A program made the translations under genes and the position numbers. A DNA stretch of 62,753 nucleotides, the filler included, from Candidatus Woesearchaeota archaeon (GTDB lineage Archaea; Nanobdellota; Nanobdellia; Woesearchaeales; BM511): the NCBI GenBank assembly GCA_023266675.1. It is 3 parts of 3 records of this genome, joined end to end, with 100 filler letters (N's around TTAATTAATTAA, not from the genome) between each part and the next. Parts side by side here need not be neighbours in the genome. Positions count along the whole stretch, not along the records: positions 28,328 to 55,272 come from JAHFPP010000010.1; 2 more parts are not named here. One strand, written 5' to 3'. Under the pieces are notes generated by a model, which saw only the letters and a program-made list of their open reading frames with translations, did no database searches and was not told the DNA's origin. Each line of letters begins with the position of its first letter. Position 1 is the stretch's first letter. Below, one piece after another: positions 16,033 through 43,354 of this stretch.

Positions 16033-16191
16033 ATGTTTTTAGACGTTAAAAACTCAAACAAAAGGGGTAAGAAAGGTCAGTATGCTTTAACGCAAAACCT
16101 TGTAATTATAATCATTATACTTATTCTTGTTGGTATGGCATCATTCATAATCTATAAAGCAGTCAGCGGAAAACTGGCGGTGCATCCATGA
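16033..16191 (+). CDS. 52-aa mini-pilin (not in the ORF track)
   Basis: MFLDVKNSNKRGKKG|QYALTQNLVIIIIILILVGMASFIIYKAVSGKLAVHP*; ATGA overlap with the next gene. Confidence 0.8.
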   Translation: MFLDVKNSNKRGKKGQYALTQNLVIIIIILILVGMASFIIYKAVSGKLAVHP

Positions 16192-17306: not shown

Positions 17307-17310
17307 TAAA

Positions 17311-17463
17311 ATGAGGAAAAATAAAAACGCAGAGATTGGTTGGAGTTTTGTAGTAAAATTAATTCTTGGATTAATGATATTATTGGCTTTGATATTTGTA
17401 GCAGTGAATGCAAAATCAGGATTTTCAAACATGTTTAGTAAATTAGGAAGCTTATTTGGGTAA
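17311..17463 (+). CDS. 50-aa mini-pilin
   Basis: MRKNKNA|EIGWSFVVKLILGLMILLALIFVAV; start moved to ATG 17311. Confidence 0.75.
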   Translation: MRKNKNAEIGWSFVVKLILGLMILLALIFVAVNAKSGFSNMFSKLGSLFG

Positions 17464-17466
17464 GAA

Positions 17467-20466: not shown

Positions 20467-20482
20467 TAATCAGGGGTATAAA

Positions 20483-21301
20483 TTGGAAAAACAACTTTCA
20501 GAATATATTAAACAACAGTTAAAACAAAAACAAAAACCAAAAGAGATAGTATCCTCCCTAATGAAAAATGGATATGATGAAAAAGAAGCTAAACATAAAG
20601 TGCATTTTATAATAATTTTAAAATATCTTAAACTACTAGGAATCATACTCTTTTCAATTGTAATTCTTAGTTTTTTATTTATTTGGTTATATTTTACATT
20701 AACTGAAAAAACAATTCCTGTTAAAGAAATGTACCCTTCTAAACCAGAAAGCTGGATTGTAAAAACTGAAAATAATCAAAGTTTAGTTGATGTATCATCA
20801 ATAACTAAAGGTAACTCTTATTTTGAAGGTTTAAAACAAGTATACACAATTCCGTTTACAGATTTAACAACAATTTTTGAGGTTAATGGTTATTACAAAG
20901 GTACATATTTTTATGACTCTTATAATAAGGGAAACAAAGATTTAATGAGAATAACAAGCTCAATGAATCCAAGTGATGGGGTTATTGAAGGGTTCATTGT
21001 TGAAAGAATTAATGATTATAAAATAAATAATGTAACAGCTTTTATTTTTGTTGATTCTGATTGGAAAAATGCAATGCCAAATACGAAAATTTTCTATGGT
21101 TCAAAATATCAATATACTTCCGATTTTAAATTTAATGAGATAAGTCCCGGAATTTATATGACACAGATATATGACGATCCAAACAGACATTTTGAGAATT
21201 TCAGCATAAGTTATGGAGGAATAGCTGTTGGAGATTTGACAAAAGAGGATATATTAAATAATAATATCATCAATAAAACTTTTATAAGACTTTATTCATA
21301 A
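20483..21301 (+). CDS. Single-pass membrane protein of unknown function
   Basis: Short basic/helical N-terminus, one TM segment, C-terminal soluble domain. Confidence 0.7.
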   Translation: MEKQLSEYIKQQLKQKQKPKEIVSSLMKNGYDEKEAKHKVHFIIILKYLKLLGIILFSIVILSFLFIWLYFTLTEKTIPVKEMYPSKPESWIVKTENNQSLVDVSSITKGNSYFEGLKQVYTIPFTDLTTIFEVNGYYKGTYFYDSYNKGNKDLMRITSSMNPSDGVIEGFIVERINDYKINNVTAFIFVDSDWKNAMPNTKIFYGSKYQYTSDFKFNEISPGIYMTQIYDDPNRHFENFSISYGGIAVGDLTKEDILNNNIINKTFIRLYS

Positions 21302-21347
21302 AGTGCATCCAACAGCTTTAAATAGGAGAAGCGACACAAGATTTATT

Positions 21348-21719
21348 ATGAATAAGAAAGCAGATATGTCAATAAATACAATTGTTGCAGCAGCTCTTGC
21401 ATTGATACTTCTGATAATACTAATCTTTGTATTCAAAGGTCAGATAGGTAACCTTGCAAAAGGGTTTACTACAACAGGAGATGAAGCAAAACTTGGAGCT
21501 ACTCAAACGAAATGCAGGGCAATGTTTACTGATAGAGCTTGTGAATCTGATTTAAGTAAGTTTCCAGAATATACTAAAACAGGTTCTGCTTTACCAAAAC
21601 CTTGTAAAAAATATAAACCTGACCCAGTGACTAAAAAAGATAGTCAAGAATGTCTAGATGTAGGTTGGATTGATTGTGGAAATTCCGATTGTTATGAAAT
21701 AGTTAAAAAATCAACTTAA
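21348..21719 (+). CDS. Type IV pilin-like protein
   Basis: KKA|DMSINTIVAAALALILLIILIFVF; six-Cys head; start moved to ATG 21348. Confidence 0.85.
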   Translation: MNKKADMSINTIVAAALALILLIILIFVFKGQIGNLAKGFTTTGDEAKLGATQTKCRAMFTDRACESDLSKFPEYTKTGSALPKPCKKYKPDPVTKKDSQECLDVGWIDCGNSDCYEIVKKST

Positions 21720-21853
21720 TTTCTTCTAAATTATATTAAATCACAATGTTTATTTCTTTTTTATTCTGATTTCTATTTTAAAATAGGAAACTAATCATGA
21801 AAATTAAGGTTATTTCCTATAGTTTTTTATACACCTAATTCAATCTGTACTGT

Positions 21854-23356
21854 ATGAGGATAAAAGGTTATCATTTATGGCTTTTAGCGATATTCCTAGT
21901 AGTCTTTGCTTCAAGGATGTATATTTCTTCACAGACTGATTTATTCTCTGACGATAATTCATATTTCACTTTAAGGCAGGTTGAACATATTGTTGATACT
22001 GGAAAGCCTTTGATATATGATGACTTGAGCTATGGAGGTAGAACACTTATTTTTTCGCCATTTTATTTTTATCTTCTTTCAGCGGCATATATAATCAATC
22101 ATAAGATTATAATGCTTAAAATATTTGTTAATTTGCTTGCAACACTTCTTGTTTTGGCAAGCTTTTTGATAGCTGACGAAGTCACCAAAAGCAAAAAGAT
22201 AGCGCTTGTAACAGCGTTTCTCTCAGGATTTATACCTGTGTATTTTCAGGAAACCGTAAACTCTCTATCCATTTATTCCTTAATTGTCCCATTGACATTC
22301 TTTTCAATATATTACCTAATGATGCTAAATAAGGATAAGAAATACAGCACGCATTTTCTTGTTTTATTGACGTTTCTTATAATCTCTTCGCCTACTTCAA
22401 TAATATTTGTTCTTGGAATACTTTTTTTTATAATTCTTGCAAAACTTGAAAAAATAGAACTTAACAAGGCAAACATTGAGATACTTATAGTTTCAATATT
22501 TTTCTATCTATGGCTTAATTTTATATTGTTCAAAAAAGCGATACTGTTTCATGGGCCGTCAATAATATGGCAGAATATTCCAAAAATATACCTGACTCAA
22601 TACTTTTCTGAAATTAACATATTGCAATCCGTATACCTGATAGGGGTGCTTCCTTTTGTTTTAGGTATATATTCTGCGTACATCTATGTCACACGCCAGA
22701 ATTCACTGCAAATTTACATAATAATCGGGGCATCATCATCATTGTTTCTTCTTTTATGGTTTAAACTGATACCTTTTAAGACTGGGCTTATATTTCTTGG
22801 AGCGTTTCTTGTGATACTGCTTTCACAGTACCTAAAACTGTTCTTTGATTATATTCTGCAGACAAAATTTTCAAAGTTTTCAGCATTCGCTTTTATACTA
22901 TTTATCATAATGATACTTTTATCATCAGTGTTGCCAAGTGTTGTTTTAGGATATCAAAAAATAAGTAATATACCCGAAAAAGAAACACTTGACGCATATT
23001 CATGGATTTCAAAAAACATAAACAGTACAAATACTGTTTTGGCGTTACAGGATGAAGGGCATGCACTCTCCTATTTTGGAAATGTAAAAACAGTAGCTGA
23101 CGACAATTTCATATTTGTAAAAAATATTGATCAGCATATCTATGACGTTGACAGAATATACCTTACAAGGTTTAGCGATGAATCACTTGAAATCATCCAC
23201 AAATATTATATTGATTATATTCTCATTGACAAAAAAGTAAAATTAAAATATAATTTAACTGATGTATTCTATTCAACTGATGAATGTTTTTCTCTGGTAT
23301 ATCATACCAAAGATGTAAAAATCTATAAAATATTATGCGAAGAGGAAGCAATATGA
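21854..23356 (+). CDS. GT-C fold multipass membrane protein (AglB/STT3-like glycosyltransferase)
   Basis: DDNSYFTLRQVEHI after TM1, many TM segments, C-terminal domain WI..N...VLALQDEGHALSYFGNVKTVADD...YYIDYILI. Confidence 0.65.
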   Translation: MRIKGYHLWLLAIFLVVFASRMYISSQTDLFSDDNSYFTLRQVEHIVDTGKPLIYDDLSYGGRTLIFSPFYFYLLSAAYIINHKIIMLKIFVNLLATLLVLASFLIADEVTKSKKIALVTAFLSGFIPVYFQETVNSLSIYSLIVPLTFFSIYYLMMLNKDKKYSTHFLVLLTFLIISSPTSIIFVLGILFFIILAKLEKIELNKANIEILIVSIFFYLWLNFILFKKAILFHGPSIIWQNIPKIYLTQYFSEINILQSVYLIGVLPFVLGIYSAYIYVTRQNSLQIYIIIGASSSLFLLLWFKLIPFKTGLIFLGAFLVILLSQYLKLFFDYILQTKFSKFSAFAFILFIIMILLSSVLPSVVLGYQKISNIPEKETLDAYSWISKNINSTNTVLALQDEGHALSYFGNVKTVADDNFIFVKNIDQHIYDVDRIYLTRFSDESLEIIHKYYIDYILIDKKVKLKYNLTDVFYSTDECFSLVYHTKDVKIYKILCEEEAI

Positions 23357-24795
23357 AAAAGATATTCGAACTTAATAAAAAAGCATCAATAGCAATTCTT
23401 CTCATGATATTTCTGGTTACATTTTCATTTCTTGGTGTTGCAAGATATCAAAAAAACAGTGCTTTAATTGGAGATGAATCATATTATCACCTAAGACTCT
23501 CTGAAAACATTGAAAAAAACGGATTTGAAAAAAATGGATTATCAGACAATGATTTATCATTGATTTTAGGACAGAAATATTATTTTAATCTAATTGATTT
23601 TGTTTTATCGCTTGTAAAACACAAGATTATATTCATGATAACAATTCCGCTTCTGCTTGGATTAGCCTCATTAATATTTTTTTATCTGGCACTTTCAAGG
23701 ATAGGTATAGAAAATAACCAGGTATTTTTTTCGTCAATACTCCTTATTTTGTCACCGCCTTTTATATACATATTTTCATCATATACTGTCTATCCTTTTC
23801 TTGTTTTTTTTAACATCCTTTTCCTGTTTTTATATTTAAACAACATGAAAAAGCTCTCTTTTCTGGCTATAATCCCAACATTATTTATAAGTCTCCCATC
23901 AGTATTTTTGACGTCTTTGATACTATTTTTTATCTATATATTCAATAAAAAGGACAAGCGTGAGATACTGATATCATCTTCATTATTAATATTAACCTCA
24001 TTAATAATATATTTCACCTTCTATTTTCCAAATTTTATTCCAAACAAGCTTTTTTTCTTTCACAGAAACATTTTTTCAAGAATAATATCTGACCTTGGAG
24101 CTAGCATAGGAATCAGCATATTTCATTTGGTTCTTGCATTTATCGGGCTTCTTGTAATAAAGACAAAAGAGAAAAGATTTCCAAATTACTTAATTCTTCT
24201 TTTCGCATTGATACTTTCAATATTTTTTAATCTTATAATGATATTTTTCAACTTCTTTGTGTGTTTTCTCGCATCATATTCATTATCGGAGATTTATCAT
24301 AAAAAATGGGAGATAGATGTACTAAAAAATATTACATTAATACTCATAATTTACGGTCTTTTATTTTCAAGTTTTTCTTTTCAGACAAGGTTAATCAGTT
24401 CAAGTCCTACAATTGAGGAAATAAACGCGCTAGCATTCTTAAAGGATAACCCATCTGGAGTTGTTTTTTCGCACTTCTCAAACGGCTATCAGATAGAGTA
24501 TTTTTCAGAGAAAAGCGCAATGATAGACCAAAGAATCTACACATTAAATAACGGCAAAGAATTATTGAATGATTCAAACACGATATTCTTTTCAAGAAAC
24601 ATTCAAACTACAAAGAAGCTGCTTGAGAAAAACAATATCTCTTATATTTTTATAAACAAGGAAATGAAAGACGGGCTTATATGGGACAAGCGAAATCAGG
24701 GGCTTCTTTTCCTTCTTGACAAATCTACAGATTTTAAAAATATATATGACAAAGATGAAGTGGAAATATGGCAAGTTTTATCATCAAAAAATTGA
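23353..24795 (+). CDS. GT-C fold multipass membrane protein (AglB/STT3-like), paralogue of the upstream gene
   Basis: GDESYYHLRLSENI; VFSHFSNGYQIEYFSEKSAMID...NISYIFI; ATGA overlap gives start 23353. Confidence 0.65.
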   Translation: MKKIFELNKKASIAILLMIFLVTFSFLGVARYQKNSALIGDESYYHLRLSENIEKNGFEKNGLSDNDLSLILGQKYYFNLIDFVLSLVKHKIIFMITIPLLLGLASLIFFYLALSRIGIENNQVFFSSILLILSPPFIYIFSSYTVYPFLVFFNILFLFLYLNNMKKLSFLAIIPTLFISLPSVFLTSLILFFIYIFNKKDKREILISSSLLILTSLIIYFTFYFPNFIPNKLFFFHRNIFSRIISDLGASIGISIFHLVLAFIGLLVIKTKEKRFPNYLILLFALILSIFFNLIMIFFNFFVCFLASYSLSEIYHKKWEIDVLKNITLILIIYGLLFSSFSFQTRLISSSPTIEEINALAFLKDNPSGVVFSHFSNGYQIEYFSEKSAMIDQRIYTLNNGKELLNDSNTIFFSRNIQTTKKLLEKNNISYIFINKEMKDGLIWDKRNQGLLFLLDKSTDFKNIYDKDEVEIWQVLSSKN

Positions 24796-25424: not shown

Positions 25425-27068
25425 TTATCTTTGATAAATATCTAAATCTCTTTTGTCAAAAGCGCTTAATCTTTCAGCATGGTTAATTCCATACCCATTC
25501 ATAAGAAGAGTTGATATTGTTTCTGAAACTCTGCCTTCTAAAATCCTTTCTTGTCTTTTACCTGTTTCTATTGCAAAAGCTTCATATTCTGGAGAGTAAT
25601 CTTTTTCTGTGCTTTCAATAAGAGTTAGAAGATTGTTGTATCCTTCAATCATGCCTCTTACATTCAAAAAAGATCTATTATATCCTTCATTGTCTCCACG
25701 CATTTGCACAAGTCTGGATTCTTTCTTCATTACAGCTAAAACTTTTTCTGCGTTTACTGTTATTCTTCCTTTTTCTGATGAAGGATAAAAGAATGAGAAA
25801 TTAGGTGCATTTTTAAGATTCATATCAAAAAATGGGAAAAATTCTTCAACTAAAGATAAAGCCAAAATTTGCCTATCCTCCAATCGTTTGCCATATTCAC
25901 TCTTATTCTTTAACAAAAGGTCTGCATAGCTTTCAATAGCGGAAAGATGACTAAAGAAATCTTCCTTTGAAATTATCCCAGCTTCATGTATGCAATGAAT
26001 CAATGGTCGTGAGTATAATGTGTCGTAAATAAATTTTTCATAAGGCATTATTCTTGCAAGCTCAAGCTCAGTTTTTGAGACCTCGTGAACTTCTACGCTT
26101 TGAAATGGCACTTTAAAATTTATTTTTCCTTTGGAAATGGAGATGGGGAATGCATAAGACAAGTCATCAACAAGGGCGACATCTCCTGTTCTTAAATCCA
26201 TGGATATATTATGAGGATGAAACTCTCCGCTAAATCCGTTCATTCCAAAATCAACCGAATACTTTTTATTAAAATAAGACTTAGGGATATCATGCGCAGT
26301 AAGTATTGCAGTGTCATCTCTCCCTTGAAAAAAGTTTAGTTGATTAAGAATACTGCCAACAGATGAGAATATGTATTCCATATACTCTTTCGGGCTAATT
26401 TCTTTAACATCTGCAAGCTCCTTCATCAGCTGAGGAGTCAAAAATGATAACCTTATCGCTTCTGTTTTTTGCTCTGTAATGCTTATTGAGAAAGGTGTAT
26501 GTGCAGGAATTACAAGCTTTTCTTCATTTGAATCTATACCATAAAATTGTTCTGGAGCATTTGACATGAATTCTAAGAAGGCAACAGGAGTGTTGTGAAA
26601 AGGAATTCCATTATCCATAAGGTGACTATGAAGCGAAAGTGACCGTCCTATCTCTGACTCCAATACCGCAGGTGGCATTGAAGGAAGAGTCGGCGCATAT
26701 GAAGTGAACGTTGTTAGACTTCTGCTTGGCGGATGCCTTGGTGAGAATGTCCTTAAAATATAGGTTTTATCATCTATCCTTGCTTCAAAGCGGCGATATG
26801 AAAAAGGAGATGGAATAAAAGTTATTCGTTTATCGCTCTTTGTGTTTCTTATTACATATCTTGGAGTTGTCTTATAATATCTCCATATTGCTTCGTTAGC
26901 AACATCTGTGCTGAATGCAGGGGAATACAATTCTAAAATAGGATTAATTTCTGTTCTAAGGTGGGTTATATCTCTAAGAAGCTCAACGCTGCCGTTAACA
27001 ATTTCTTCCAAAAGTATTTTTGAAGAGTCGTCTTTAGAAAAATTATTTGTAAGGATGGAGACCGTCAT
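25425..27068 (-). CDS. Hypothetical protein, possible atypical kinase-like fold
   Basis: 547-aa ORF; LESEIGRSL..H..L...GIP and GEFHPHNI...VDD motifs. Confidence 0.55.
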   Translation of the reverse strand: MTVSILTNNFSKDDSSKILLEEIVNGSVELLRDITHLRTEINPILELYSPAFSTDVANEAIWRYYKTTPRYVIRNTKSDKRITFIPSPFSYRRFEARIDDKTYILRTFSPRHPPSRSLTTFTSYAPTLPSMPPAVLESEIGRSLSLHSHLMDNGIPFHNTPVAFLEFMSNAPEQFYGIDSNEEKLVIPAHTPFSISITEQKTEAIRLSFLTPQLMKELADVKEISPKEYMEYIFSSVGSILNQLNFFQGRDDTAILTAHDIPKSYFNKKYSVDFGMNGFSGEFHPHNISMDLRTGDVALVDDLSYAFPISISKGKINFKVPFQSVEVHEVSKTELELARIMPYEKFIYDTLYSRPLIHCIHEAGIISKEDFFSHLSAIESYADLLLKNKSEYGKRLEDRQILALSLVEEFFPFFDMNLKNAPNFSFFYPSSEKGRITVNAEKVLAVMKKESRLVQMRGDNEGYNRSFLNVRGMIEGYNNLLTLIESTEKDYSPEYEAFAIETGKRQERILEGRVSETISTLLMNGYGINHAERLSAFDKRDLDIYQR

Positions 27069-32331: not shown

Positions 32332-33574
32332 TTATTCAAATTTGTATCCTTCTGGAACAATTGTTATCTTATTTTTGAAGTCAACTCTGAAACCTCTTTT
32401 GTTATCATGCTCTAAATCCCGCCCTATACTAGTTCCTGCAGGAATTATTACTCCTTTATCAACAATGGTCCTGTACAGGTTAGCGCCTTTTCCGACATAA
32501 TTGTTTCCCATAAGAATAGTATCAGTTATATCTGCGCCATCAATTATTGAATTATATGAAAGTATTGAACCATTTACATTCCCTGAATAAATAACTGTTC
32601 CGTTTGCTGAAACAGAATTACGTGGGTTACCATCCAAATTTTTTGCAGGAGTTGAAACTTCCATATAAGTATGAATTGGCCAATTAGGATGGTGCGCGTT
32701 AGGTATCTCTCTTGGAAGCGCAACTTCCATACTCGTGTTGAAAAATTCAATTGGTGAGCCAACATCTCTCCAATAAGGTTCAGTTTTTCTTTCTTCTCCA
32801 TCAATTCGGTTATCTCTAAAATTATAAACAAATACTCTTCTGTTATTTCTTAGCATGCTTGGGATTATGTCAAAACCAAAATCATTTTTTGAGAATGTTT
32901 CTGGGCTTTCTTTCACGAGGGGACCATCAGTTGTAAATTCTCTTTTCCCGTCTAAAACAAGTTCTTCAAGCAAAGAGCGAGGGTTGAATGCATAGTTTCC
33001 CATGGATGCAAGACAATATCCTTCCATTCCGGGGATTTGTTTTGGGTGTTCTGGTTTTTCTTCAAAACCTTTTAATCTCCAATCTTTATCAACTTCAAGG
33101 TATCCCTGAAATAGTCATGTCAGCATTATTATCCCTATGAAACTGATTCATCTCTCTTACATCCATTATATATATGTGGTCAGCGCCAAATACGTTGACA
33201 ATAGAAGGATTCCCATATCCAATATCATCCATATTCTGAAATATTGCATTTGCTGTTCCTCTATACCATCCTTCTTCTTCCTTGCTTCCAAGGGTGGCAG
33301 CGCGAATGTTAAATGAGTCATTCTGACCAAATCCGACACGCGGGTACCATCCTTCACTTATATGCTTGATAAGCGAATCTGATCTATATTGCGTTAAAAT
33401 TAGAACTCTTTTTGAACCTGCTTGGGAGTTATATATGTTGCTAAGCACATAATCAATTACTCTGTGTGTTCCTCCAAACGGAACTGCAGGCTTAGCTCTT
33501 CGAGTAGTCAATGGGCGCAGTCTTTTTCCTTCTCCGCCTCCAAGCACATATACTAATTCATTTAATTTAGGCAT
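32332..33574 (-). pseudogene. glgC: Glucose-1-phosphate adenylyltransferase, frameshifted by an internal deletion near 33100
   Basis: GGGEGKRL.PLT..RAKPAVPFGG, WYRGTA, DHIY.MD in frame 1; FEEKP, ASMGNY, YWRDVG and beta-helix in frame 2. Confidence 0.88.
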
Positions 33575-33687
33575 AAACCATAGAATCTCTTTATTATTTA
33601 TAAATTTTTCTTATAGTACCACTATATAATAGTTAAAACTAATTAAATTTATAAATCAAACATGATTTCCTATGAGATTGAGAAACA

Positions 33688-34602
33688 ATGGCAGAATTAA
33701 CTGAGTTAATTGAGAAAACCGATTTAGCAATACCATCACTAGACAGCATTCTTCCAAATAGATGGGACCCATACAGTAATGACCAACATGATGAGATAAA
33801 TGAATCTCTGGCACAGCTTAATCTTCCTAATTATCATCAAATGTCTGCGCAGGATAAGATTACACTTGTTGATGTAACAAATCAAGTCAGGGTAAATAGA
33901 CAACAAAGGTTAGAGAATGCAAGAAAGATACTCGGCGTTGACAATCAGACATTAACTCTTATTGCAGAAGAAATTGAAGCACTTCATGGAAAAAGATTCA
34001 GCGAATATTACCTTCGTATAAACGGATATGCTCCTGTGGTATCATTTTTAACAAAACTTTTTGGAGAGGATATGCGCAGTAGAAATATTGTAGAGATAGG
34101 GACAGGCAATGACGGCATTGCAATGCTTGGATACTTCTCAAGAAAAGGAGCCAGATGCTATGGCTTGGACTCTGAATCAACTCCAAAAGACGAAAAACTG
34201 AAAGAACACAACGTTCAATTCATTAAAGACAGATGGGAAAACATTGCATTGCATTTTGAACCTTTAAGTGTTGACGCAATATACCTTCAGTATATGCATC
34301 CAAATCCAGATATAGACAGTCCTTTATTTAATAATGAAGCATACACTAATCAAGGAGTTGATGGAATGCGCAAAAGAATAGAGGAAAAACAGTGGGATTT
34401 CCAGAAACACGTTGCAAAAGAGATGCATAAAATTTTAAAACCAAATGGCGTTTTCGCGTTAAGAGAATTAGATCAATTTTTAGAAGAACGCAGTGAGTTC
34501 ATTGCATATGAAACTTGCTTCACACAAAACGGATTCACGCTTCATAAACCAAAGCTTGAGAAATTCGGACGATATCTGCATATATTCCAGAAAACAAATT
34601 AA
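33688..34602 (+). CDS. Class I SAM-dependent methyltransferase-like protein
   Basis: IVEIGTG, YGLD, SVDAIY, HKILKPNG. Confidence 0.8.
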   Translation: MAELTELIEKTDLAIPSLDSILPNRWDPYSNDQHDEINESLAQLNLPNYHQMSAQDKITLVDVTNQVRVNRQQRLENARKILGVDNQTLTLIAEEIEALHGKRFSEYYLRINGYAPVVSFLTKLFGEDMRSRNIVEIGTGNDGIAMLGYFSRKGARCYGLDSESTPKDEKLKEHNVQFIKDRWENIALHFEPLSVDAIYLQYMHPNPDIDSPLFNNEAYTNQGVDGMRKRIEEKQWDFQKHVAKEMHKILKPNGVFALRELDQFLEERSEFIAYETCFTQNGFTLHKPKLEKFGRYLHIFQKTN

Positions 34603-34634: not shown

Positions 34635-35486
34635 TTAATTATTCTCTCTAAACATTGCTATCTCTTTTACTGCAGTAAGATAATGTTTTGAATTATTATA
34701 CCTCAATATCGCTTTATCATGATTATTACTAAATCCTCTTTTGCTTAGATAGTATGCTGAAGAAAATATTGCATCTCTCATATTAAATGGGTGTGATTTT
34801 GTAACGTCGCCAGCTTCCCCGACAAATTCTCTGTTAAGTGACCACGGCAAAAATTGACTAAAACCAGTTGCGCCTGCATACGAGCCTTTAAGCGAGAATA
34901 TTGGAATCTTTGTTCTTTTAGAGTAATCTATCAATTCAGCTAAATGGTCCAAGGCAAACTTTCTTTTTTTCTCAACAAAGACATAAGTAGATGCGAGCGC
35001 ATTCACTGTTTTATATCTCCCTAAATTATTTCCAAATTTTGTTTCTATACCAATAATACCAGTTATATACTCTTTGTTAACCTTATGTCTTTTTTCTGCC
35101 ATCTCAAGCGCTTCCTTATGCTCTTCCATGAATCTTTGTTTTAATTCAAAAATTTCATTAATGCCAAGAACACGCTTATAATCATCATAATTTCTAATCA
35201 CAAATTTTTCTTTGCCGTCTGCTTTGCATCCATTCCAATTATACATCACACCTTTCTCTATCTTAAACTCTGCGTCATTAAATATTGAATCAATTGTTTT
35301 GCTGTCAAACTTTCTGGATAATTCTCTTCTTAATTCAGAAACTTTCTTCTCTTCCTTAACTTCAATCTTCTCAGTTATGCATCCTTTATTATTTGTCACT
35401 GCATTTGTTCTTTGCTCTGCATAAACATCACTAATTGGAGAGAGAAGCATTGCTATAACAGCAGATGTTGTTATTGTTCTTTTCAT
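34635..35486 (-). CDS. mltB: Secreted lytic murein transglycosylase B-like protein (SLT_2/GH103)
   Basis: Signal peptide; GIIGIETKFG (catalytic Glu), GSYAGA.G.SQFLP, DAI.S.AYYL, AILRYN.S..Y..AV. Confidence 0.9.
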   Translation of the reverse strand: MKRTITTSAVIAMLLSPISDVYAEQRTNAVTNNKGCITEKIEVKEEKKVSELRRELSRKFDSKTIDSIFNDAEFKIEKGVMYNWNGCKADGKEKFVIRNYDDYKRVLGINEIFELKQRFMEEHKEALEMAEKRHKVNKEYITGIIGIETKFGNNLGRYKTVNALASTYVFVEKKRKFALDHLAELIDYSKRTKIPIFSLKGSYAGATGFSQFLPWSLNREFVGEAGDVTKSHPFNMRDAIFSSAYYLSKRGFSNNHDKAILRYNNSKHYLTAVKEIAMFRENN

Positions 35487-35528
35487 AATATACCAAGAAT
35501 AAAAAACTTATTTATAAATTGCATAGAC

Positions 35529-36278
35529 TTAATTGATATCTCTGGTTTGTTTCCAAAGCCGCGGTATGACATATTCAGAAAGCTGTTTTAGATTAATTAT
35601 GTCCTCTTCGTTGTACTGCACCAGTAAATCAAGGTATTTTTTCTCGCCAGTCGCTCTGTATTGACGCCAAAGCATAACTGCATCTTCGCCAGTCACTCCC
35701 TGCACTTCGTCAGCTCTTTTGATTCCGATCTCATGCTCAATCTTTTTTAGTCCACCGGAGAGTCCAATCTTTTTTGCTGCAAAACGAAGGTCTATATGCG
35801 GTACATTGAAGTCAATGTTAAACTGCCGCCGAATAACAGGCAAATCAAATGATGCACCGTTAAATGTTATTAGCATTTTATATTTTGAAAGCTCGTCCTC
35901 AATTTTATCCTTGAAAAGCGATTGTCCTTTAACAAAAGTTTTTGTGTCGTGCCCGTCATAGAGTCCAAGAACTGTGATGTCACCATAGTATCCTGTTGTT
36001 TCAATATCCAAAAAACAGACGTCGTTCTTGAATTGATTATATAATCTCCACGTTTCGCCTGTAGGAAAAACTTCCTTGAAAAACTTCTCATTATCATCAA
36101 TAAGATGTTTTTTAGCATCATTAATTAGCCGGTCGTAAGAAGGCTTTTTAGCTTCAGTAACTCCTTTAATCTGCTCAGTTTTTAAAAAATCATCCCAGCT
36201 GTGAACATTCTGCGACCAAATGATTTTCTCCTTCTTTGGAGTTATCCTTGGAAGAAAAATAAAAGAGTTTTGTATCAT
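35529..36278 (-). CDS. YprB/RNase_H_2-family exonuclease
   Basis: FLDIETTG, TFNGASFDLP, GGLK.IE, YNEED. Confidence 0.9.
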   Translation of the reverse strand: MIQNSFIFLPRITPKKEKIIWSQNVHSWDDFLKTEQIKGVTEAKKPSYDRLINDAKKHLIDDNEKFFKEVFPTGETWRLYNQFKNDVCFLDIETTGYYGDITVLGLYDGHDTKTFVKGQSLFKDKIEDELSKYKMLITFNGASFDLPVIRRQFNIDFNVPHIDLRFAAKKIGLSGGLKKIEHEIGIKRADEVQGVTGEDAVMLWRQYRATGEKKYLDLLVQYNEEDIINLKQLSEYVIPRLWKQTRDIN

Positions 36279-36345: not shown

Positions 36346-36792
36346 TTAATTTATATCTTTATAAACAGGTGTTTCTTTGTCTTTTTGAAAATTAATTCCA
36401 AATCTTACTTTCAGATAAAATTCTTGAAGTCCGTTCACCTGTTTATAACCAAGATGTTCCCAGAACGCTGAATTTTCATTATTATTTATTATAATCTTTT
36501 GTATTCCTAATTCTTCACAAATTGTTTCTCGTAATTCAATTAATTTTCTTCCAAGCCCTTTGCCGCGATGTTCATCATCAACTTTTAAATCACCATTATA
36601 AGACAGTCTATTTGGTATGTCTAAAAGAAAACGGTATTTACCATATTCTACAGAACCAAGATGAGATAATACTCCAAAAACATTTGACCCAGCATGATTA
36701 AATTCGAGAGCAAACCATCTTGATTCATCAAATTCAGGTATTACTGCGGCAGCATGTTTTCTAATAAGTGCATCAATATATTTTGTATTCAT
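36346..36792 (-). CDS. GNAT-family acetyltransferase
   Basis: VDDEHRGKGLGRKLI, N.AFWEHLGY. Confidence 0.85.
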   Translation of the reverse strand: MNTKYIDALIRKHAAAVIPEFDESRWFALEFNHAGSNVFGVLSHLGSVEYGKYRFLLDIPNRLSYNGDLKVDDEHRGKGLGRKLIELRETICEELGIQKIIINNNENSAFWEHLGYKQVNGLQEFYLKVRFGINFQKDKETPVYKDIN

Positions 36793-36859: not shown

Positions 36860-37082
36860 CTATTCAAACGGATTAAACTTTTGTTTCAGAAGATTTTCTA
36901 TCGGTAAAAGTAGCGACGTTGGTAGTAAGTTTCATTTAAACCATTTCACTGTTCACATTCATCTGGCTCTATAATCTTGACTTTCCCAGAATCATAATCT
37001 GCAATAATAAAGAGAGCGATGTAATGCTTTTCTCTTTTTTTGGCGTTATCCTTGGTAGGAAAATAAAAGAGTTTTGAATCAT
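36860..37082 (-). pseudogene. Chimeric pseudogene: YprB N-terminus joined to a NUDIX C-terminus
   Basis: MIQNSFIFLPRITPKKEK, then in another frame KHYIALFIIADYDSGKVKIIEPDECEQ, frameshift, KWFK*NLLPTSLLLPIENLLKQKFNPFE*. Confidence 0.85.
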
Positions 37083-37225
37083 GATTTTATCAATTAATCA
37101 CTGTTTTAAATAGTTTGGGAAAAATAGGAACTAACTTAAAAATAAGTTATATAATAAAAACTATATTCTCTAATACTTCTATTAAAGAATAGTCTTATAT
37201 AGGAATAGGGCTTATTACTCATTAA

Positions 37226-37789
37226 ATGGAAAAAGCAGACCCAAAACTCCCAAAGCTAACTGAAAATGACAAAGAAGTGCTTAGGCAGATTATAGATCAT
37301 TCTAAAATTCCAGACAGCAAAATTGCAGAAGAAATTGGAATCTCCCCTCAGGCAGTCTTTAAGATACGAAACAAGCTTGAAGAATTAGGAATAATAAAAG
37401 GATATACTCCTGTAATCGATTTTAAGAAAGTCGGCATTAATGTTTTAGCGCTGCTTGTTCTTCGTTTTAAGTCAGGTGTATGGGACAGGTATTCCGATGA
37501 TTTTGTTTCTGAACGTATAACAAAAATTCCTTATATCATCGCAGCTTACAGAGTCGCTGACGCGAGAGCATCACATATACTCTTAATTGGGTTTAGAAAT
37601 ACTGCGCAAAAAGAGCAGTACCTTGCACAGATCCAAACTAAATACCAGAATGATATTGAGATAAAAGATGCATACACATTCTCAGTTGATAAAATAATCA
37701 CTCAAAATCCAATAGGGTTATTGAACGAAATAATCGACAAAAACGATTTTTCTAAATATGAATTATTCCCTGTGGACAAGAAAAAATAG
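37226..37789 (+). CDS. Lrp/AsnC-family transcriptional regulator
   Basis: LTENDKEVL..IAEEIGISPQAV..IRNKLEELGIIKGY.PVID. Confidence 0.9.
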   Translation: MEKADPKLPKLTENDKEVLRQIIDHSKIPDSKIAEEIGISPQAVFKIRNKLEELGIIKGYTPVIDFKKVGINVLALLVLRFKSGVWDRYSDDFVSERITKIPYIIAAYRVADARASHILLIGFRNTAQKEQYLAQIQTKYQNDIEIKDAYTFSVDKIITQNPIGLLNEIIDKNDFSKYELFPVDKKK

Positions 37790-37892: not shown

Positions 37893-38453
37893 ATGGAAAA
37901 AGCGGACCCTGATTTTCCAAAGCTGACAGAGCATGATAAGGAAGTTCTAAAGGAGATTATACATCATGCTAAAATTCCTGACAGTAAAATAGCCGAAGAT
38001 ATTGGAATTTCCCCTCAGGCAGTCTTTAAGATACGAAACAAGCTTGAAGAACTGGGGATAATCAAAGGATACACGCCAGTAATCGATTTTAAGAAGATAG
38101 GCATCAATGTCTTGGTTCTTATCATCCTCCGCCTTAAATCTTCAGTCTGGGATAAATACACCAATGATGAAGTCTCTGAAAATATCTCTAAAATTCCTCA
38201 CATCATCTCGGCATATAGAGTTGCTAATGCGCAGGCATCGCATGTGCTTCTAATGGGCTTTCGGGATATTTCACAAAAGGAGACTTATCTTTCCAAGATT
38301 CAAACAAAATATGCAAACGAGATAGAAGTCAATGCAGTGCACACGTTCTCTGTTGATAACATAATAACCCAGAATTCAATCAGACTATTAAATGAGATGT
38401 TGGATAAGAAAGATTTTTCTGAATACGAATTATTCCCAACTAAAAAGAAATAA
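37893..38453 (+). CDS. Lrp/AsnC-family transcriptional regulator (tandem paralogue)
   Basis: Same HTH motif; colinear with the upstream gene. Confidence 0.9.
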   Translation: MEKADPDFPKLTEHDKEVLKEIIHHAKIPDSKIAEDIGISPQAVFKIRNKLEELGIIKGYTPVIDFKKIGINVLVLIILRLKSSVWDKYTNDEVSENISKIPHIISAYRVANAQASHVLLMGFRDISQKETYLSKIQTKYANEIEVNAVHTFSVDNIITQNSIRLLNEMLDKKDFSEYELFPTKKK

Positions 38454-38987: not shown

Positions 38988-41624
38988 ATGAAACAAAAAA
39001 CAAATTTTAAAAAATTATTATCAAATCTATCTATCTATCTAATCTTAATGGTGTCAATTATGTTTAGCGCACACGCATACACATCACCTGCAACTATTAA
39101 TCTTCTGACAGCAGCGGATTATGTCATATTAACAAAAACAGGAGTCACAAATGTACACACCTCCGCAATCACAGGAGATGTTGGTTCAAGCCCAATCACT
39201 GCTGCTTCAATGGACAACGTGTTTTGCTCGGAAATAACCGGAACAATATATGGCGCTAACGCAGCATATACGGGAAGCGGAGACGTAACCTGTTTTGCAG
39301 GAACACCATCCGATAATACTTTGGTGGCTAACGCAGTTCTTGATATGGGAACTGCATACGGTGATGCAACATCACGAGCACCTGACGCAACTGAACTAGG
39401 CGCAGGAGACCTTAGTGGATTAACACTCGCTCCGGGAGTATATAAGTGGAGTACAGATGTTGTTATAAATACTGACGTCACGCTTAACGGAAGCAATACA
39501 AGCGTATGGATCTTTCAAATATCAGGAGATTTAACTGTTGCTGCTGGTGCAAACGTACCTGCAGGAATAAAAGTACTGCTTATAGGAGGAGCGCTTCCAC
39601 AAAACATTTTCTGGCAGGTTGGCGCATCAAACTTTGGAGCAACACTTGGAACCTACTCAACATTTAATGGAAACATTTTAAGCGCAAAGCAGGTCAGGAT
39701 AAACACTGGCGCAATATTAAATGGACGAGCGCTTGCAGACACCCAAGTTACATTACAGTCTAATACCATAACAATACCTACAACTGGCGGCGGTGGTGGC
39801 GGCGGTTCAACAAACTCAACAATAACATTAGCAACACCAGGAAATAATACTTTTAAAAATAATATTACACCAACATTCATATTCAAATATATTGGTAACA
39901 CAACAGCCTCGTGCACTTTGTTTGTTGATAGTGTAGGTAAAGGAATAAATGCATCAACGGTTAATAATACAAATACAGCAATCGTTGCAAACAGTTCATT
40001 AACTCAAGGAAATCACAATTGGAATGTAAACTGCACAGATTCTTCCGGAAACGTTGGTTCATCAATAAGATTAGTCAAAATTGACACAACATCTCCGGTA
40101 GTGAATTTAATAAGTCCAACCAATAACACTTTTAGCGCATCTATATTTACTTTTAATTACACTGATGCCTTAAGTTCAACATCATCATGCACATTATATG
40201 TTGGCGGAGTATCTAAAGGAACAAATGGTTCAGTTGCCAACAACACAAACACAGCCATCACTGCAAACTCTTCATTAACTCAAGGAAGCAACAGTTGGTA
40301 CGTAAACTGCACTGACCTTGCAGGCAATATCGGAAATTCAAGCAGCAGAATCGTTTTAACAGATTCAATTTATCCAACATCATTAATCAACAATGTTAAT
40401 GGTGTGCTTAATGGAATTGGCACAACTAATGAAACTTTGACAATAAATTTCACTGCAAATGACACAAACATGGTAAATTGGACGTTATCAGTCTATAATT
40501 CAACATGGGGTTTATTGCAGAATTGGTCAGCAAATACAAATAATCTTTCTGCATTCAACGTATATACAGCAACTTCAAACGGCACATATTACATAAACTT
40601 GACTGTCAGAGATAATGCTACCAACATAAACACCACTTCATTTACTGTGTATGTCGATCAGTCAGTGCCAATCATAACGACATTTACACTTTCAGATTCA
40701 AGTGTTTATATTGGACAGACAATAACATGGTCATGCTTGGCAACGGATAGTTATACTGTTGTGACAACTGATGTAACTGGGCTAGATACCTCATCGGCAG
40801 GAACAAGAACAGCAACATGCATAGCAACAGACGGCGCCGGAAACACAGCATCTGCAACAGCATCATATACTGTCTCTCATAGGGCAACAGGCGGCGGAAG
40901 CGGAAGCGGCGGAAGCAGCAGTGCAACATCTGACAATTCGCAGTCATCAAGCCTTTCAACAATGATAGAAGGAAAAACAAATGTAGAATTCAATAAAGCA
41001 ACATTGCCAGTAACAGGAGTTGATATTGAAACAAGTGAAAAAGCATCAAACGTGAAAATAACAGAAACAATGCTTAGTACAAAACCATCTGATACTCCTG
41101 CTCCACAGGCTGAATACATCTACTATTATATTCAGATTGACCACACAAACCTTAACAACTCAATAATAAGCTCTGTAAAAATTAGGTTTAAAGTAGCTAA
41201 ATCCTGGATTGAAAGCAATAGTATTCAGTTAAGCCAGATAAGGCTTTATAGATACAACCAAGGATGGGAAACACTTAACACAACAATGTTATCAAATGAC
41301 TTAACCTATTATTATTTTGAGGCAACAAGTCCCGGGTTATCACTTTTTGCAATAGGATCTGAGAACGCAGCTGTAACGCCACCTGTAGTAACTCCGGCTG
41401 TAACACCTCCTGTAGTAACTCCGGCTGTAACACCTCCTGTAGTAACTCCGGCTGTAACACCTCCTGTAGTAGTACCGCAAGTCACAGGCAACGCAGCAAG
41501 TGAAAGCTGGTTTAAAACTTCATGTGGACTGGTTTTGGCATTGTTTGTTATCATCGGACTTTTGATTGGAGGATACTTTATGTTTAGAGAGCCAAAAAAC
41601 AAGAATCGGAGACATAGAGATTAA
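38988..41624 (+). CDS. Cell-surface ice-binding protein: DUF3494 + Ig-like repeats + PGF-pre-PGF domain + C-terminal TM anchor
   Basis: ILTKTGVT, ITGDVG.SP, TLAPGVYKW, WIFQI, NIFWQVG, GRALA.TQVTL; EATSPGLSLFAIG; many N-x-S/T sequons. Confidence 0.9.
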   Translation: MKQKTNFKKLLSNLSIYLILMVSIMFSAHAYTSPATINLLTAADYVILTKTGVTNVHTSAITGDVGSSPITAASMDNVFCSEITGTIYGANAAYTGSGDVTCFAGTPSDNTLVANAVLDMGTAYGDATSRAPDATELGAGDLSGLTLAPGVYKWSTDVVINTDVTLNGSNTSVWIFQISGDLTVAAGANVPAGIKVLLIGGALPQNIFWQVGASNFGATLGTYSTFNGNILSAKQVRINTGAILNGRALADTQVTLQSNTITIPTTGGGGGGGSTNSTITLATPGNNTFKNNITPTFIFKYIGNTTASCTLFVDSVGKGINASTVNNTNTAIVANSSLTQGNHNWNVNCTDSSGNVGSSIRLVKIDTTSPVVNLISPTNNTFSASIFTFNYTDALSSTSSCTLYVGGVSKGTNGSVANNTNTAITANSSLTQGSNSWYVNCTDLAGNIGNSSSRIVLTDSIYPTSLINNVNGVLNGIGTTNETLTINFTANDTNMVNWTLSVYNSTWGLLQNWSANTNNLSAFNVYTATSNGTYYINLTVRDNATNINTTSFTVYVDQSVPIITTFTLSDSSVYIGQTITWSCLATDSYTVVTTDVTGLDTSSAGTRTATCIATDGAGNTASATASYTVSHRATGGGSGSGGSSSATSDNSQSSSLSTMIEGKTNVEFNKATLPVTGVDIETSEKASNVKITETMLSTKPSDTPAPQAEYIYYYIQIDHTNLNNSIISSVKIRFKVAKSWIESNSIQLSQIRLYRYNQGWETLNTTMLSNDLTYYYFEATSPGLSLFAIGSENAAVTPPVVTPAVTPPVVTPAVTPPVVTPAVTPPVVVPQVTGNAASESWFKTSCGLVLALFVIIGLLIGGYFMFREPKNKNRRHRD
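41370..41477 (+). repeat. 4 x 27-bp coding tandem repeat (AVTPPVVTP linker)
   Basis: GCTGTAACACCTCCTGTAGTAACTCCG repeated four times with minor variation. Confidence 0.95.
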
Positions 41625-41776: not shown

Positions 41777-43354
41777 ATGAAAGGAAAAAAATTATTAAAT
41801 ATTGTTTTATACACGCTTGTAATTGTGTCATTATTATCTGTAAGCATATTCAGCGCTTACGCAGCGCAGTCAGCAGTTAATCTAGGAACTGCAGGAAATT
41901 TTGTTATCCTATCAAAAACAGGAGTATCAACAACAGGCACAACAGCTATAACAGGAGATATTGGTGTAAGTCCGATTGACGGCACTGCAATCACAGGCTT
42001 TGGACTGATAATGGATGCAACAAACGAATTCTCAACATCATCACTTGTAACTGGAAAGCTTTACGCAGCAGATTACACGCCACCAACTCCGGCTAAAATG
42101 ACGACAGCTGTGAGCGACATGGAAACAGCATACACTGATGCAGCTGGGCGAACAGAAACAAGCATAGTCACAGAGCTAGGCGCAGGCGACATCAGCGGCA
42201 TGACAATTGCACCAGGCCTTTACAAATGGGGTACAGGAGTTCTAATTTCAACAGATATAACACTTGAAGGAGATTCAAACGCAATATGGATTTTCCAGAT
42301 ATCAGGCGACCTTACTGTGGCGTCAGGGGCGAAAATAATCTTAAAAGGCGGAGCGCAGGCTAAGAACATATTCTGGCAGGTAGGCGGAGGAGTTGGCGTA
42401 GAAATAGGAACAACAGCGCACATAGAAGGAAACATCATAGCTCAAAAAGCAATTCACCTTCGAACTGGTGCCACATTAAACGGACGCGCACTTTCCCAAA
42501 CAGCAGTAACATTGGATGCTAATGAAATATCATTATCCGCATCATCAACAGCTACTGAAACATCAACATCTGGCACAACAGGAACATCATCAAATAATAA
42601 TCAAGCCAACACAAATTCAAATAGCGGCACAAGCAGTGGCACTAGCAGTGTGTGCAGAGCAGCTTTTGAGTGTAATGACTGGTCAACATGTAATGCTGAA
42701 AAAAAGCAGACAAGAATATGTGTAGACAAAAATAACTGCGGAAGTAAAGATAATACTGAAACAAGAACTTGCACATATATTCTCAAATCAGAAAATAATT
42801 CAGATAAAGAATATTTGACCGATGAAAAAAATAAATCAAGTGAAGGAATCGGCCAGGAGCTCAATAATCAGATTAGCGAGCGAAAAGAAGAAATCAAGTC
42901 AGGCGAGTATACATCACCTATGGGTCAAATGATGGGAGTTAGAGAATTATCCAAAAACCTAAAAGAGTTAAGGGTCAATAATATCAATGCTCAAACTAGT
43001 TTAAGCATAATCGCCGAAACTGATAAAGACGGAAAAACAAGATTCAAAACAAAATTGACAAACGGCACAGAAATAGAAATAAAAATTATGCCTAACATGG
43101 CTTCACAAAAAGCGCTTGAGCAGCTAATGGTCAAAGTGTGTTCGTCTGACAATAACTGCACAATCCAGCTAAAAAAAGTTGGAAATGGAGCCTCTGAAAA
43201 GATTCAATACGAAATACAATTGGAAAGGCATTCAAAACTTTTAGGGATGTTCTCCAAAAAGATGCATGTCAGCGCAAATGTCGATGCACAAACAGGCGCA
43301 GCAACAATGCATAAACCATGGTGGTCATTCATGGCATCTGAAAAATTAGAATAA
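41777..43354 (+). CDS. Secreted ice-binding protein: DUF3494 + Ser/Thr linker + Cys-rich module + C-terminal domain
   Basis: AVNLGTAGNFVILSKTG, TGDIGVSP, YAADY..PTP..MTTAVSDM.TAY.DAAGR, PGLYKW, NIFWQV, GRALSQTAVTLD. Confidence 0.93.
   Translation: MKGKKLLNIVLYTLVIVSLLSVSIFSAYAAQSAVNLGTAGNFVILSKTGVSTTGTTAITGDIGVSPIDGTAITGFGLIMDATNEFSTSSLVTGKLYAADYTPPTPAKMTTAVSDMETAYTDAAGRTETSIVTELGAGDISGMTIAPGLYKWGTGVLISTDITLEGDSNAIWIFQISGDLTVASGAKIILKGGAQAKNIFWQVGGGVGVEIGTTAHIEGNIIAQKAIHLRTGATLNGRALSQTAVTLDANEISLSASSTATETSTSGTTGTSSNNNQANTNSNSGTSSGTSSVCRAAFECNDWSTCNAEKKQTRICVDKNNCGSKDNTETRTCTYILKSENNSDKEYLTDEKNKSSEGIGQELNNQISERKEEIKSGEYTSPMGQMMGVRELSKNLKELRVNNINAQTSLSIIAETDKDGKTRFKTKLTNGTEIEIKIMPNMASQKALEQLMVKVCSSDNNCTIQLKKVGNGASEKIQYEIQLERHSKLLGMFSKKMHVSANVDAQTGAATMHKPWWSFMASEKLE

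Follow-up and report, generated by a model that had tools for sequence, protein, structure and literature searches.

A predicted secreted lytic transglycosylase of short SLT_2 form encoded by a Woesearchaeota archaeon

Introduction

The closest described enzymes to the protein reported here are the bacterial lytic transglycosylases MltB/Slt35 of Escherichia coli and SltB1 of Pseudomonas aeruginosa (PDB 1QUS/1D0K, 4ANR and 9VLR), with which it shares the fold as well as the catalytic I-E-T-x-F/Y-G, the GSYAGA..QF.P and the RYN.S motifs. It differs from them in being archaeal-encoded and in having neither a segment of about 59 residues nor a lipobox or an outer membrane anchor, at an identity of 20-22% in structural alignments. 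The corresponding gene is located at positions 34635-35486 (minus strand) of a stretch of 62,753 nucleotides from Candidatus Woesearchaeota archaeon, called the window throughout, which consists of three contigs joined by runs of N. Its product is likely to be an active, exported, single-domain lytic transglycosylase of the SLT_2/GH103 type, transcribed from its own archaeal promoter and cutting bacterial walls outside the cell of this small-genome member of the DPANN archaea (from Diapherotrites, Parvarchaeota, Aenigmarchaeota, Nanoarchaeota plus Nanohaloarchaeota).

Proteins of the same trimmed architecture, about 250-310 amino acids in length and 31-42% identical, are encoded by Balneolaceae such as Fodinibius, Rhodohalobacter, Aliifodinibius and Halalkalibaculum and fall into one clade with the archaeal protein (support 99). 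These bacterial short forms make up a sub-clade of their own (support 98) and presumably act on the wall of the cell that produces them.

Lytic murein transglycosylases of Woesearchaeota and Pacearchaeota have been published (PMC9723730; PMC8204110). The accessible text of Vigneron et al. (2022; PMC9723730) describes large GH23 lytic murein transglycosylase genes in five Lake A Woesearchaeota metagenome-assembled genomes (MAGs) and in public MAGs, cites an earlier case in genome AR20 and proposes predation on bacteria. As far as the accessible text of both papers goes, these are likewise exported glycan-strand cutters of peptidoglycan-free DPANN archaea with the same proposed role on bacteria, but they reach up to 3,000 amino acids and belong to GH23 in one of the papers (PMC9723730), whereas the protein described here is a single-domain SLT_2/GH103-type enzyme of 283 amino acids. 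Membership in the large extracellular DPANN transglycosylase family (fam00969; GH23 type) was considered and rejected on the grounds of this length, of a domain which is SLT_2 and not SLT, and of a genome in which the SLT family (PF01464) finds no match. More broadly, a survey (PLoS Biol 2025; PMC12352652) reports, in its accessible portion, that 175 of 3,706 archaeal genomes, prominently those of Nanoarchaeota, encode peptidoglycan hydrolases, and according to its title such hydrolases kill bacteria. These are archaeal, exported and bacterial-wall-directed like the predicted enzyme, although the tested enzymes discussed in that portion are of the M23 type and not transglycosylases. As given in that portion, the survey criterion combined a catalytic domain with a wall-binding domain, so that a single-domain protein such as the present one lies outside its catalogue.

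Bacterial-wall-directed lytic transglycosylases of DPANN archaea are thus already known, and homologues are so annotated at NCBI; modestly distinctive in the present case is the minimal GH103 architecture. The literature on GH103 and archaea, or on Woesearchaeota and MltB, yielded no description of the short SLT_2/GH103 form in DPANN archaea, although supplements may list some.

Results and discussion

An intact SLT_2 gene with the catalytic motifs of solved enzymes

The gene lies on a complete contig of 26,945 bases (C36; window 28328-55272) and is an uninterrupted open reading frame (ORF) of 283 amino acids with an ATG start, the stop codon being included in its coordinates. The protein matches the Pfam family SLT_2 (PF13406) with E 2.9e-38 and 132.2 bits against a cut-off of 24.3. 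The matched part, which comprises the alpha and core regions, extends over residues 46-255 (34722-35351, minus strand) and covers only positions 3-204 of the 292 profile positions. In a sequence comparison with PDB chains, lytic murein transglycosylase B (9vlr_A, E 4.9e-20) came out best, ahead of P. aeruginosa SltB1 (E about 3e-16) and E. coli Slt35 (E about 1e-13).

The motif IIGIETKFG pairs with the catalytic motif of the I-L-G-V-E-T-G-Y-G type in the solved MltB, SltB1 and Slt35 chains. As the alignment to Slt35 chain 1d0k_A proceeds without gaps from residue 119 (chain position 94) past E148 (chain position 123), Glu148 within this motif (codon 35043-35045, minus strand) is the predicted catalytic acid, which we take to be the equivalent of Glu162 of MltB, assuming that residue 1 of the chain is residue 40 of the protein. 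Further downstream, GSYAGATGFSQFLP (residues 201-214) pairs with GSYAGA.G..QF.P of the solved enzymes, and the C-terminal AILRYNNSKHYLTAV, with LRYNNSK at residues 261-267, pairs with the I-T-R-Y-N-x-S-x-x-Y motif found near their C-terminus. The IET.FG, GSYAGA.G..QF.P and RYN.S motifs, described as intact in the original prediction, are thus all present and aligned to solved MltB, SltB1 and Slt35. E148 and Q211 are kept by every relative, by the 26 of a smaller alignment as well as by the 108 of a larger one, in which G156, S202, G205, A206, P214, L247, Y263, N264 and Y269 are at least 90% conserved. Residues aligned with those lining the site of Slt35 are invariant or nearly so in the 108 relatives, Balneolaceae included.

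An AlphaFold2 model built on the 108-sequence alignment is all helical, with a mean predicted local distance difference test score (pLDDT) of 89.2 and a predicted template modelling score (pTM) of 0.84; pLDDT falls below 50 only at residues 1-26 and 31-33. Comparison of the model with PDB by Foldseek gave eight matches with E ≤ 0.001, all of them SltB1, SltB3, Slt35 or SltB2 (query-normalised TM-score, TMq, 0.62-0.71), the next match having E 0.25. The model therefore has the lysozyme-like helical core fold of family-3 lytic transglycosylases.

A signal-like N-terminus

Residues 1-23 (35418-35486, minus strand) constitute a predicted Sec-type signal peptide with the n-region MKR, a hydrophobic core with a Kyte-Doolittle mean hydropathy of 2.39 over the 10-residue window from residue 9, and VYA followed by EQ. 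The signal peptide claimed for this protein is accordingly present as a signal-like N-terminus by this hydropathy heuristic, and it falls within the low-pLDDT residues 1-26 of the model. Export with cleavage near residue 23 may be expected from the sequence. A similar N-terminal hydrophobic segment occurs in 20 of 22 archaeal homologues, two pairs of which are identical. As judged by eye, the hydrophobic core of the N-terminus MKRTITTSAVIAMLLSPISDVYAEQ does not end in a Cys; the first one in the protein is residue 36, well beyond the core, which argues against a lipoprotein signal. A hydropathy scan of the protein detected no transmembrane-like stretch after the N-terminal segment, and the protein is probably a trimmed, exported and soluble form of the enzyme.

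Three archaeal homologues of the short form (L016, L017 and L018) start with N-termini of the MNRR-x-F-L/S type which resemble twin-arginine (Tat) signals, unlike the Sec-like start described above.

The gene resides on an archaeal contig and has its own promoter element

The genome of 1.22 Mb in 83 contigs (95.86% complete, 0.9% contamination) encodes ribosomal protein L15e, a family which matches only the four archaeal control genomes, and ribosomal protein genes of archaeal type (L19e, L32e, S4e, L5e and L24P/L26) form a cluster on the window's first contig. No archaeal small subunit rRNA was found in the genome, and neither a tRNA nor an Rfam family in the window. The contig that carries the transglycosylase gene encodes a NOG1-domain GTPase, and 42 bp upstream of the transglycosylase gene and co-directional with it is a gene for an exonuclease-like protein of the RNase_H_2 family (PF13482; 35529-36293, minus strand; Pfam E 1.1e-36). 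Of 20 genomes from the same archaeal order, 13 have an orthologue of this protein with 41-54% identity; in five relatives, the loci around it have that gene alone in common. The junction of the two genes is covered by a 1,241-base contig of a separate assembly (34878-36118) with zero differences; its run is flagged as one from which this DNA may itself derive, and the assembly, though made separately, therefore does not rest on independent data.

When the 33 contigs of 15 kb or more are ordered by tetranucleotide distance to the genome mean, contig C36 takes 13th place, and 5-kb windows over the transglycosylase gene have a distance of 0.020, the genome median being 0.019 and the 90th percentile 0.030. 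Composition supports an archaeal contig only weakly because binning itself uses such signals.

Upstream of the gene, the archaeal TATA-box-like hexamer TTTATA (35513-35518, minus strand) begins at position -32 from the ATG. Among 638 ORFs of at least 200 amino acids in this genome, TTTAWA occurs 164 times at -32 to -27, a sharp peak with its maximum at -30, and it is found in the zone from -40 to -24 in 30.4% of the ORFs versus 3.9% of random 22-mers. A hexamer at -32 implies a leaderless or near-leaderless transcript. Both the gene's own TATA box and its archaeal-looking neighbours, as originally predicted, are borne out, the former by a TTTATA at the distance preferred in this genome and above chance, the latter by the RNase_H_2 orthologues and the NOG1 GTPase together with the ribosomal proteins. 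The taxonomy of the contig, which had been named as a point to be confirmed, is archaeal, with adjacent orthologues, composition, bridging assembly and promoter in agreement. For context, a GNAT acetyltransferase gene (36346-36792, minus strand) is the first of three co-directional genes, separated by gaps of 52 and 42 bp, and the transglycosylase gene could also be co-transcribed with its two upstream neighbours. The one RNA run from this sample gave no contig on the stretch, which carries no information on expression.

If bacterial DNA, for example Balneolales-like, had been misbinned or chimerically assembled into an archaeal MAG, the gene would encode an ordinary housekeeping transglycosylase. 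The SLT_2 family is overwhelmingly bacterial, its Pfam model matches only bacterial genomes among the controls, and close short-form relatives of 31-42% identity exist in many Balneolaceae; moreover, coverage is low (about 5x) in the single listed DNA run, its assembly is fragmented, and tetranucleotide similarity as a binning criterion is partly circular. Nevertheless, the gene 42 bp upstream has its orthologues within the order and a separate assembly bridges both genes, and the NOG1 GTPase on the same contig, the TATA box at its preferred distance and the typical composition speak against contamination. Of 400 further genomes of the order, 19 also have homologues, in part on contigs of more than 100 kb, and a grouping of the protein with the Balneolales clade is rejected (see below). 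Contamination or chimerism is therefore very unlikely and already largely refuted.

A bacterial wall as the probable substrate

Mur_ligase_M, SEDS (FtsW/RodA) and the penicillin-binding protein (PBP) transpeptidase have no match in this genome, which at about 96% completeness does not prove their absence; each of these families matches 10 of 10 bacterial controls, and Mur_ligase_M also two archaeal controls. Judged from its gene content, the organism fits an archaeon without murein or pseudomurein, in agreement with the earlier statement that archaea lack peptidoglycan. As synthesis genes for peptidoglycan or pseudomurein were not recognized, the substrate is expected to be a bacterial wall outside the archaeal cell. 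Formation of the 1,6-anhydro ring requires a free C6 hydroxyl on a sugar of the N-acetylmuramic acid (MurNAc) type. The talosaminuronic acid of pseudomurein has no C6 hydroxyl, which makes the pseudomurein of a methanogen or other archaeal host an implausible substrate.

No SLT, Amidase_2 or LysM domain was found in the genome, again with the limit that absence is not proven at 96% completeness. One Peptidase_M23 domain (E 1.5e-18), a family matching 10 of 10 bacterial and none of four archaeal controls, is present at residues 210-309 of a protein with an N-terminal hydrophobic segment, encoded outside the window by a 1,215-codon ORF (contig C50, 241-3885, minus strand). For parts of the N-terminal 809 amino acids of this ORF, the portion searched, homologues were detected in 29 of 40 relatives of the order, several of them across the M23 region. 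With the SLT_2 enzyme and the M23 protein, the genome pairs a cutter of glycan strands with a cutter of peptide cross-links.

Extracellular cleavage of bacterial peptidoglycan is thus the function that the sequence makes most likely. In the proposed mechanism, the transglycosylase would be exported by the Sec route, cleaved near residue 23 and released as a mature helical enzyme of about 29 kDa, which would hold a glycan strand of peptidoglycan in its groove. Glu148 as general acid/base would then cut the β-1,4 bond between MurNAc and N-acetylglucosamine (GlcNAc) to leave 1,6-anhydroMurNAc, as in MltB/Slt35, whereby a bacterial sacculus could be opened or degraded locally, be it that of a host or prey, of a competitor or in debris. 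Joint action with the large membrane-anchored M23 endopeptidase protein is probable. Because outer membranes are impassable to a free enzyme, this one would probably act on exposed walls, at contact sites or on debris. Whereas fold, intact gene, conserved site residues, archaeal context and promoter are observed here, we infer export and the cleavage site, enzymatic activity, substrate and ecological role; a bacterial host or prey is suggested by the expected substrate, and the data are compatible with attack, attachment and scavenging alike.

Sporadic distribution and an established archaeal lineage

A protein search found a match in three of 60 relatives of the same order. The Pfam model gave hits at E ≤ 0.001 in 31 of 400 further genomes from this order and hits over the cut-off in 19, several on contigs of 40-170 kb, while none of three genomes of the same family was over the cut-off; among 401 high-quality genomes of the phylum, 11 were over it, this genome included, one of them outside the order. 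In a library of 1.84 billion proteins, 3,022 representatives matched at E ≤ 0.001, 889 at 1e-10 and six at 1e-30. The closest of them (P0002), encoded on a 3.6-kb metagenome contig, is 59-63% identical, the others at most 40%. Organism names were available for the clusters of three of the 30 top relatives; all three are assigned to Nanoarchaeota or Candidatus Woesearchaeota archaeon under the name 'lytic murein transglycosylase', and one of them comes from a 147-kb contig. A scan of metagenome contigs with the single protein gave, among the matches listed, one weak locus with 33% identity over residues 175-233.

Species genomes were scanned with a 4-sequence alignment and two peptide patterns derived from the protein and archaeal sequences, a biased sampling by which the finding of only DPANN archaea and Balneolales holds for this sample and not for all bacteria. 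From 132 confirmed relatives the best 80 were kept; these comprise five DPANN records (with Woesearchaeota, Nanoarchaeia, Nanoarchaeota and Pacearchaeota titles), a large block of Balneolaceae and related records with 31-42% identity, in which the alignment reaches residue 277, and proteobacterial MltB of the classical type, for which it stops at about residue 255-260.

Trees were calculated with FastTree (138 rows, 134 distinct) and with IQ-TREE (57 rows; LG+C20 with posterior mean site frequencies (PMSF), supports from the Shimodaira-Hasegawa-like approximate likelihood ratio test (SH-aLRT) only), rows of fewer than 200 amino acids or open-ended (L084, L122, L013 and L021) being left out. 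For IQ-TREE, seven long-branch rows were dropped, and thinning left 12 of 53 Balneolaceae and 24 of 43 unnamed proteins. Both trees set classical proteobacterial MltB apart from a short-form clade (99) which holds all archaeal rows, the Balneolales and the present protein. The latter pairs with P0002 (100) within a weakly supported group (83) of 23 rows, six known archaeal, 16 unnamed and no named bacterium, in which the nearest named rows are archaeal. The Balneolales belong to another sub-clade, together with four archaeal rows, of which two are nested among the Balneolales (96). Forcing the protein and P0002 into the Balneolales costs 60.2 log-likelihood units (approximately unbiased test, p-AU 0.002; the group was defined after the tree had been seen). 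From this placement, the short form appears to be an established lineage in DPANN archaea which seems to have been exchanged with bacteria more than once.

Recent horizontal gene transfer (HGT) of a selectively neutral, unused passenger gene would also produce a patchy distribution such as the absence from the three genomes of the same family, and it might be favoured by a flanking methyltransferase gene that has no homologue in 20 relatives, suggestive of a variable region, and by a nearby frameshifted GlgC-like gene. It is quite improbable, however, in view of an intact frame with all conserved residues, a host-type promoter at the right distance and a host-like composition; P0002 retains the motifs as well, and the diversity of the archaeal short-form sequences argues for a long residence in DPANN archaea.

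As a separate observation from the tree, the short-form protein of a contig titled 'uncultured Methylophaga sp.' (L052) is near-identical to that of an Aliifodinibius isolate (L059; branches 0.011 and 0.029), and this contig is probably a mis-binned Balneolaceae contig in a public MAG. A phage endolysin or virion transglycosylase was considered as a further candidate and rejected: no PHROG matched at E ≤ 0.001, and none of 101 pattern matches in viral contigs was confirmed, at the limited sensitivity of this search.

Divergence from MltB and alternative roles

A number of features weigh against an extracellular enzyme active on bacterial peptidoglycan. The match to Slt35 chain 1d0k_A is in two pieces, in which residues 119-261 correspond to chain positions 94-235 and residues 259-276 to positions 295-312. 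Therefore, about 59 residues of Slt35 (236-294 of the chain), which we take to be the beta-domain of this three-domain enzyme, are without counterpart. Because this middle segment is missing, the C-terminal core helix AILRYNNSKHYLTAVKE (residues 259-275; 34662-34712, minus strand) follows directly after the catalytic part. No beta-strand of three or more residues occurs in the AlphaFold2 model, and the alpha/beta/core three-domain architecture of Slt35 is not found. Furthermore, GEAGDVTKS is aligned to DFSGDGHIN of Slt35 and DFDGDGHIN of SltB1, a loop which in Slt35 is an EF-hand-like Ca2+ site; with most acidic positions replaced, this site may well be lost. The scores against the equivalog models are far below their cut-offs (TIGR02282, MltB: 111.4 versus 281.4 bits; TIGR02283, MltB_2: 84.4 versus 248.45 bits; NF008029, PRK10760: 83.4 versus 449 bits). 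Activity or specificity could differ in consequence of the missing segment, the degenerate loop and the low scores. The protein has neither a cell-wall-binding module nor an anchor, and a freely diffusing enzyme would be unable to reach the sacculus of a diderm unaided. AnmK was not found in the genome and the best MurQ match has 26 bits against a cut-off of 302, so that a canonical feeding route for anhydro-muropeptides is not evident. The gene is sporadic: none of the three genomes from its own family has it, and it occurs in about 5% of the order and about 3% of the genomes sampled from the phylum, which argues that it is not essential to the lifestyle. Finally, activity and expression are both predicted from the sequence.

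The protein should thus be classified as an SLT_2/GH103-type enzyme but not as an MltB equivalog. The designation 'MltB family' of the original prediction stands at the level of Pfam SLT_2 and CAZy GH103 and has to be given up at the level of MltB proper, given the failed equivalog cut-off, the missing segment and the lack of a lipobox. As a speculation, loss of the segment may have opened the groove and changed the preference between exo- and endo-cleavage.

The same divergence would be compatible with a protein that has kept the fold but addresses another target such as an archaeal or environmental GlcNAc glycan, or that is mainly a glycan-binding adhesin. The literature searched provided no characterized member of the short-form clade, and binding or attachment roles are suggested for DPANN proteins with transglycosylase domains in the accessible text of one study (PMC8204110). 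Such roles are nonetheless unlikely for the present protein, as the catalytic Glu and the other site residues are conserved across the 108 relatives, among them Balneolaceae as bacteria expected to have peptidoglycan, and as the 1,6-anhydro chemistry depends on a MurNAc-type C6 hydroxyl, with pseudomurein being implausible. To our knowledge, GH103 consists of lytic transglycosylases only, which also counts against another substrate.

Somewhat less improbable, if still rather doubtful, is an enzyme active on peptidoglycan which serves to scavenge dead wall material as a nutrient and not to address a living host or prey. A soluble, unanchored protein without a binding module suits a diffusible enzyme acting on exposed debris, and the only listed DNA run, a possible source of the genome and thus not independent, is labelled as a groundwater metagenome. 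A feeding role is at odds with the missing AnmK, the MurQ match far under its cut-off and the lack of Amidase_2 and LysM, within the limits of genome completeness noted above, and the large anchored M23 protein is a better fit to a contact-dependent biology. Cleavage of bacterial walls by an exported enzyme of the archaeon remains the preferred reading.

Implications of a minimal architecture

A more far-reaching proposal, which is tentative and has a low probability, is that the protein belongs to a distinct minimal GH103 lineage, with a degenerate Ca2+ loop and devoid of beta-domain, anchor and binding module, which moved repeatedly between DPANN archaea and particular bacteria and which in DPANN archaea would serve to attack or unlock bacterial walls, as a small diffusible enzyme with an open, possibly endolytic groove. 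Balneolales are the only named bacterial holders of the short form that were found, two archaeal sequences being nested among them, under the biased sampling described. If such a lineage has indeed moved between the domains, its phylogeny could indicate with which bacteria particular DPANN lineages live. Most DPANN archaea have not been cultured, and little is known about their partners; a cutter of bacterial walls in an archaeon lacking such a wall is a rare sequence clue that some of them have bacterial and not only archaeal partners. The existing picture is unchanged, as the idea and related genes are already published or annotated; the architecture is nevertheless one that is missed by surveys requiring a wall-binding domain. 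As a small single-domain enzyme that should be easy to express, with its own archaeal promoter and a good structural model, the protein is a convenient candidate for a direct activity test.

Further features of the window

Downstream of the transglycosylase gene and converging on it is a gene for a class-I methyltransferase-like protein of 304 amino acids (33688-34602, plus strand), the one mentioned above as lacking a homologue in 20 relatives of the order, which may mark a variable region. The GlgC-like sugar-phosphate nucleotidyltransferase gene (32332-33574, minus strand), which has an NTP_transferase N-terminal and a hexapeptide C-terminal part, is interrupted near 33030-33095 by a frameshift that leaves two ORFs, and it is either a pseudogene or misassembled in this poorly covered region; the other assembly does not cover parts of 32335-34470, most of the GlgC-like gene included.

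On the other side, upstream of the GNAT gene, an intergenic segment (37014-37088, minus strand; 8687-8761 of contig C36) encodes a stretch of 25 residues that is 80% identical to residues 4-28 of the RNase_H_2 protein and looks like the remnant of a duplication. It is followed by tandem Lrp/AsnC-like HTH_24 genes (37226-37789 and 37893-38453, both plus strand). In one contig of the other assembly, position 37342 is connected to 38010 and 667 bases are left out, 42 letters being shared at the joint, which can represent a one-copy form of this pair in the data or a repeat collapsed by the assembler.

Beyond these genes, two adjacent large proteins of 878 amino acids (38988-41624, plus strand) and 525 amino acids (41777-43354, plus strand) have N-terminal Ice_binding-like (PF11999) domains, one of them also a bacterial Ig-like Big_13 domain, and both are probably of a surface or adhesin type. 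On contig C34, the first of the window, the ribosomal protein cluster is adjoined by seven ORFs (138-999 amino acids; within 16188-24795, plus strand, and 25425-27068, minus strand) for which Pfam gives no match at E ≤ 1e-4.

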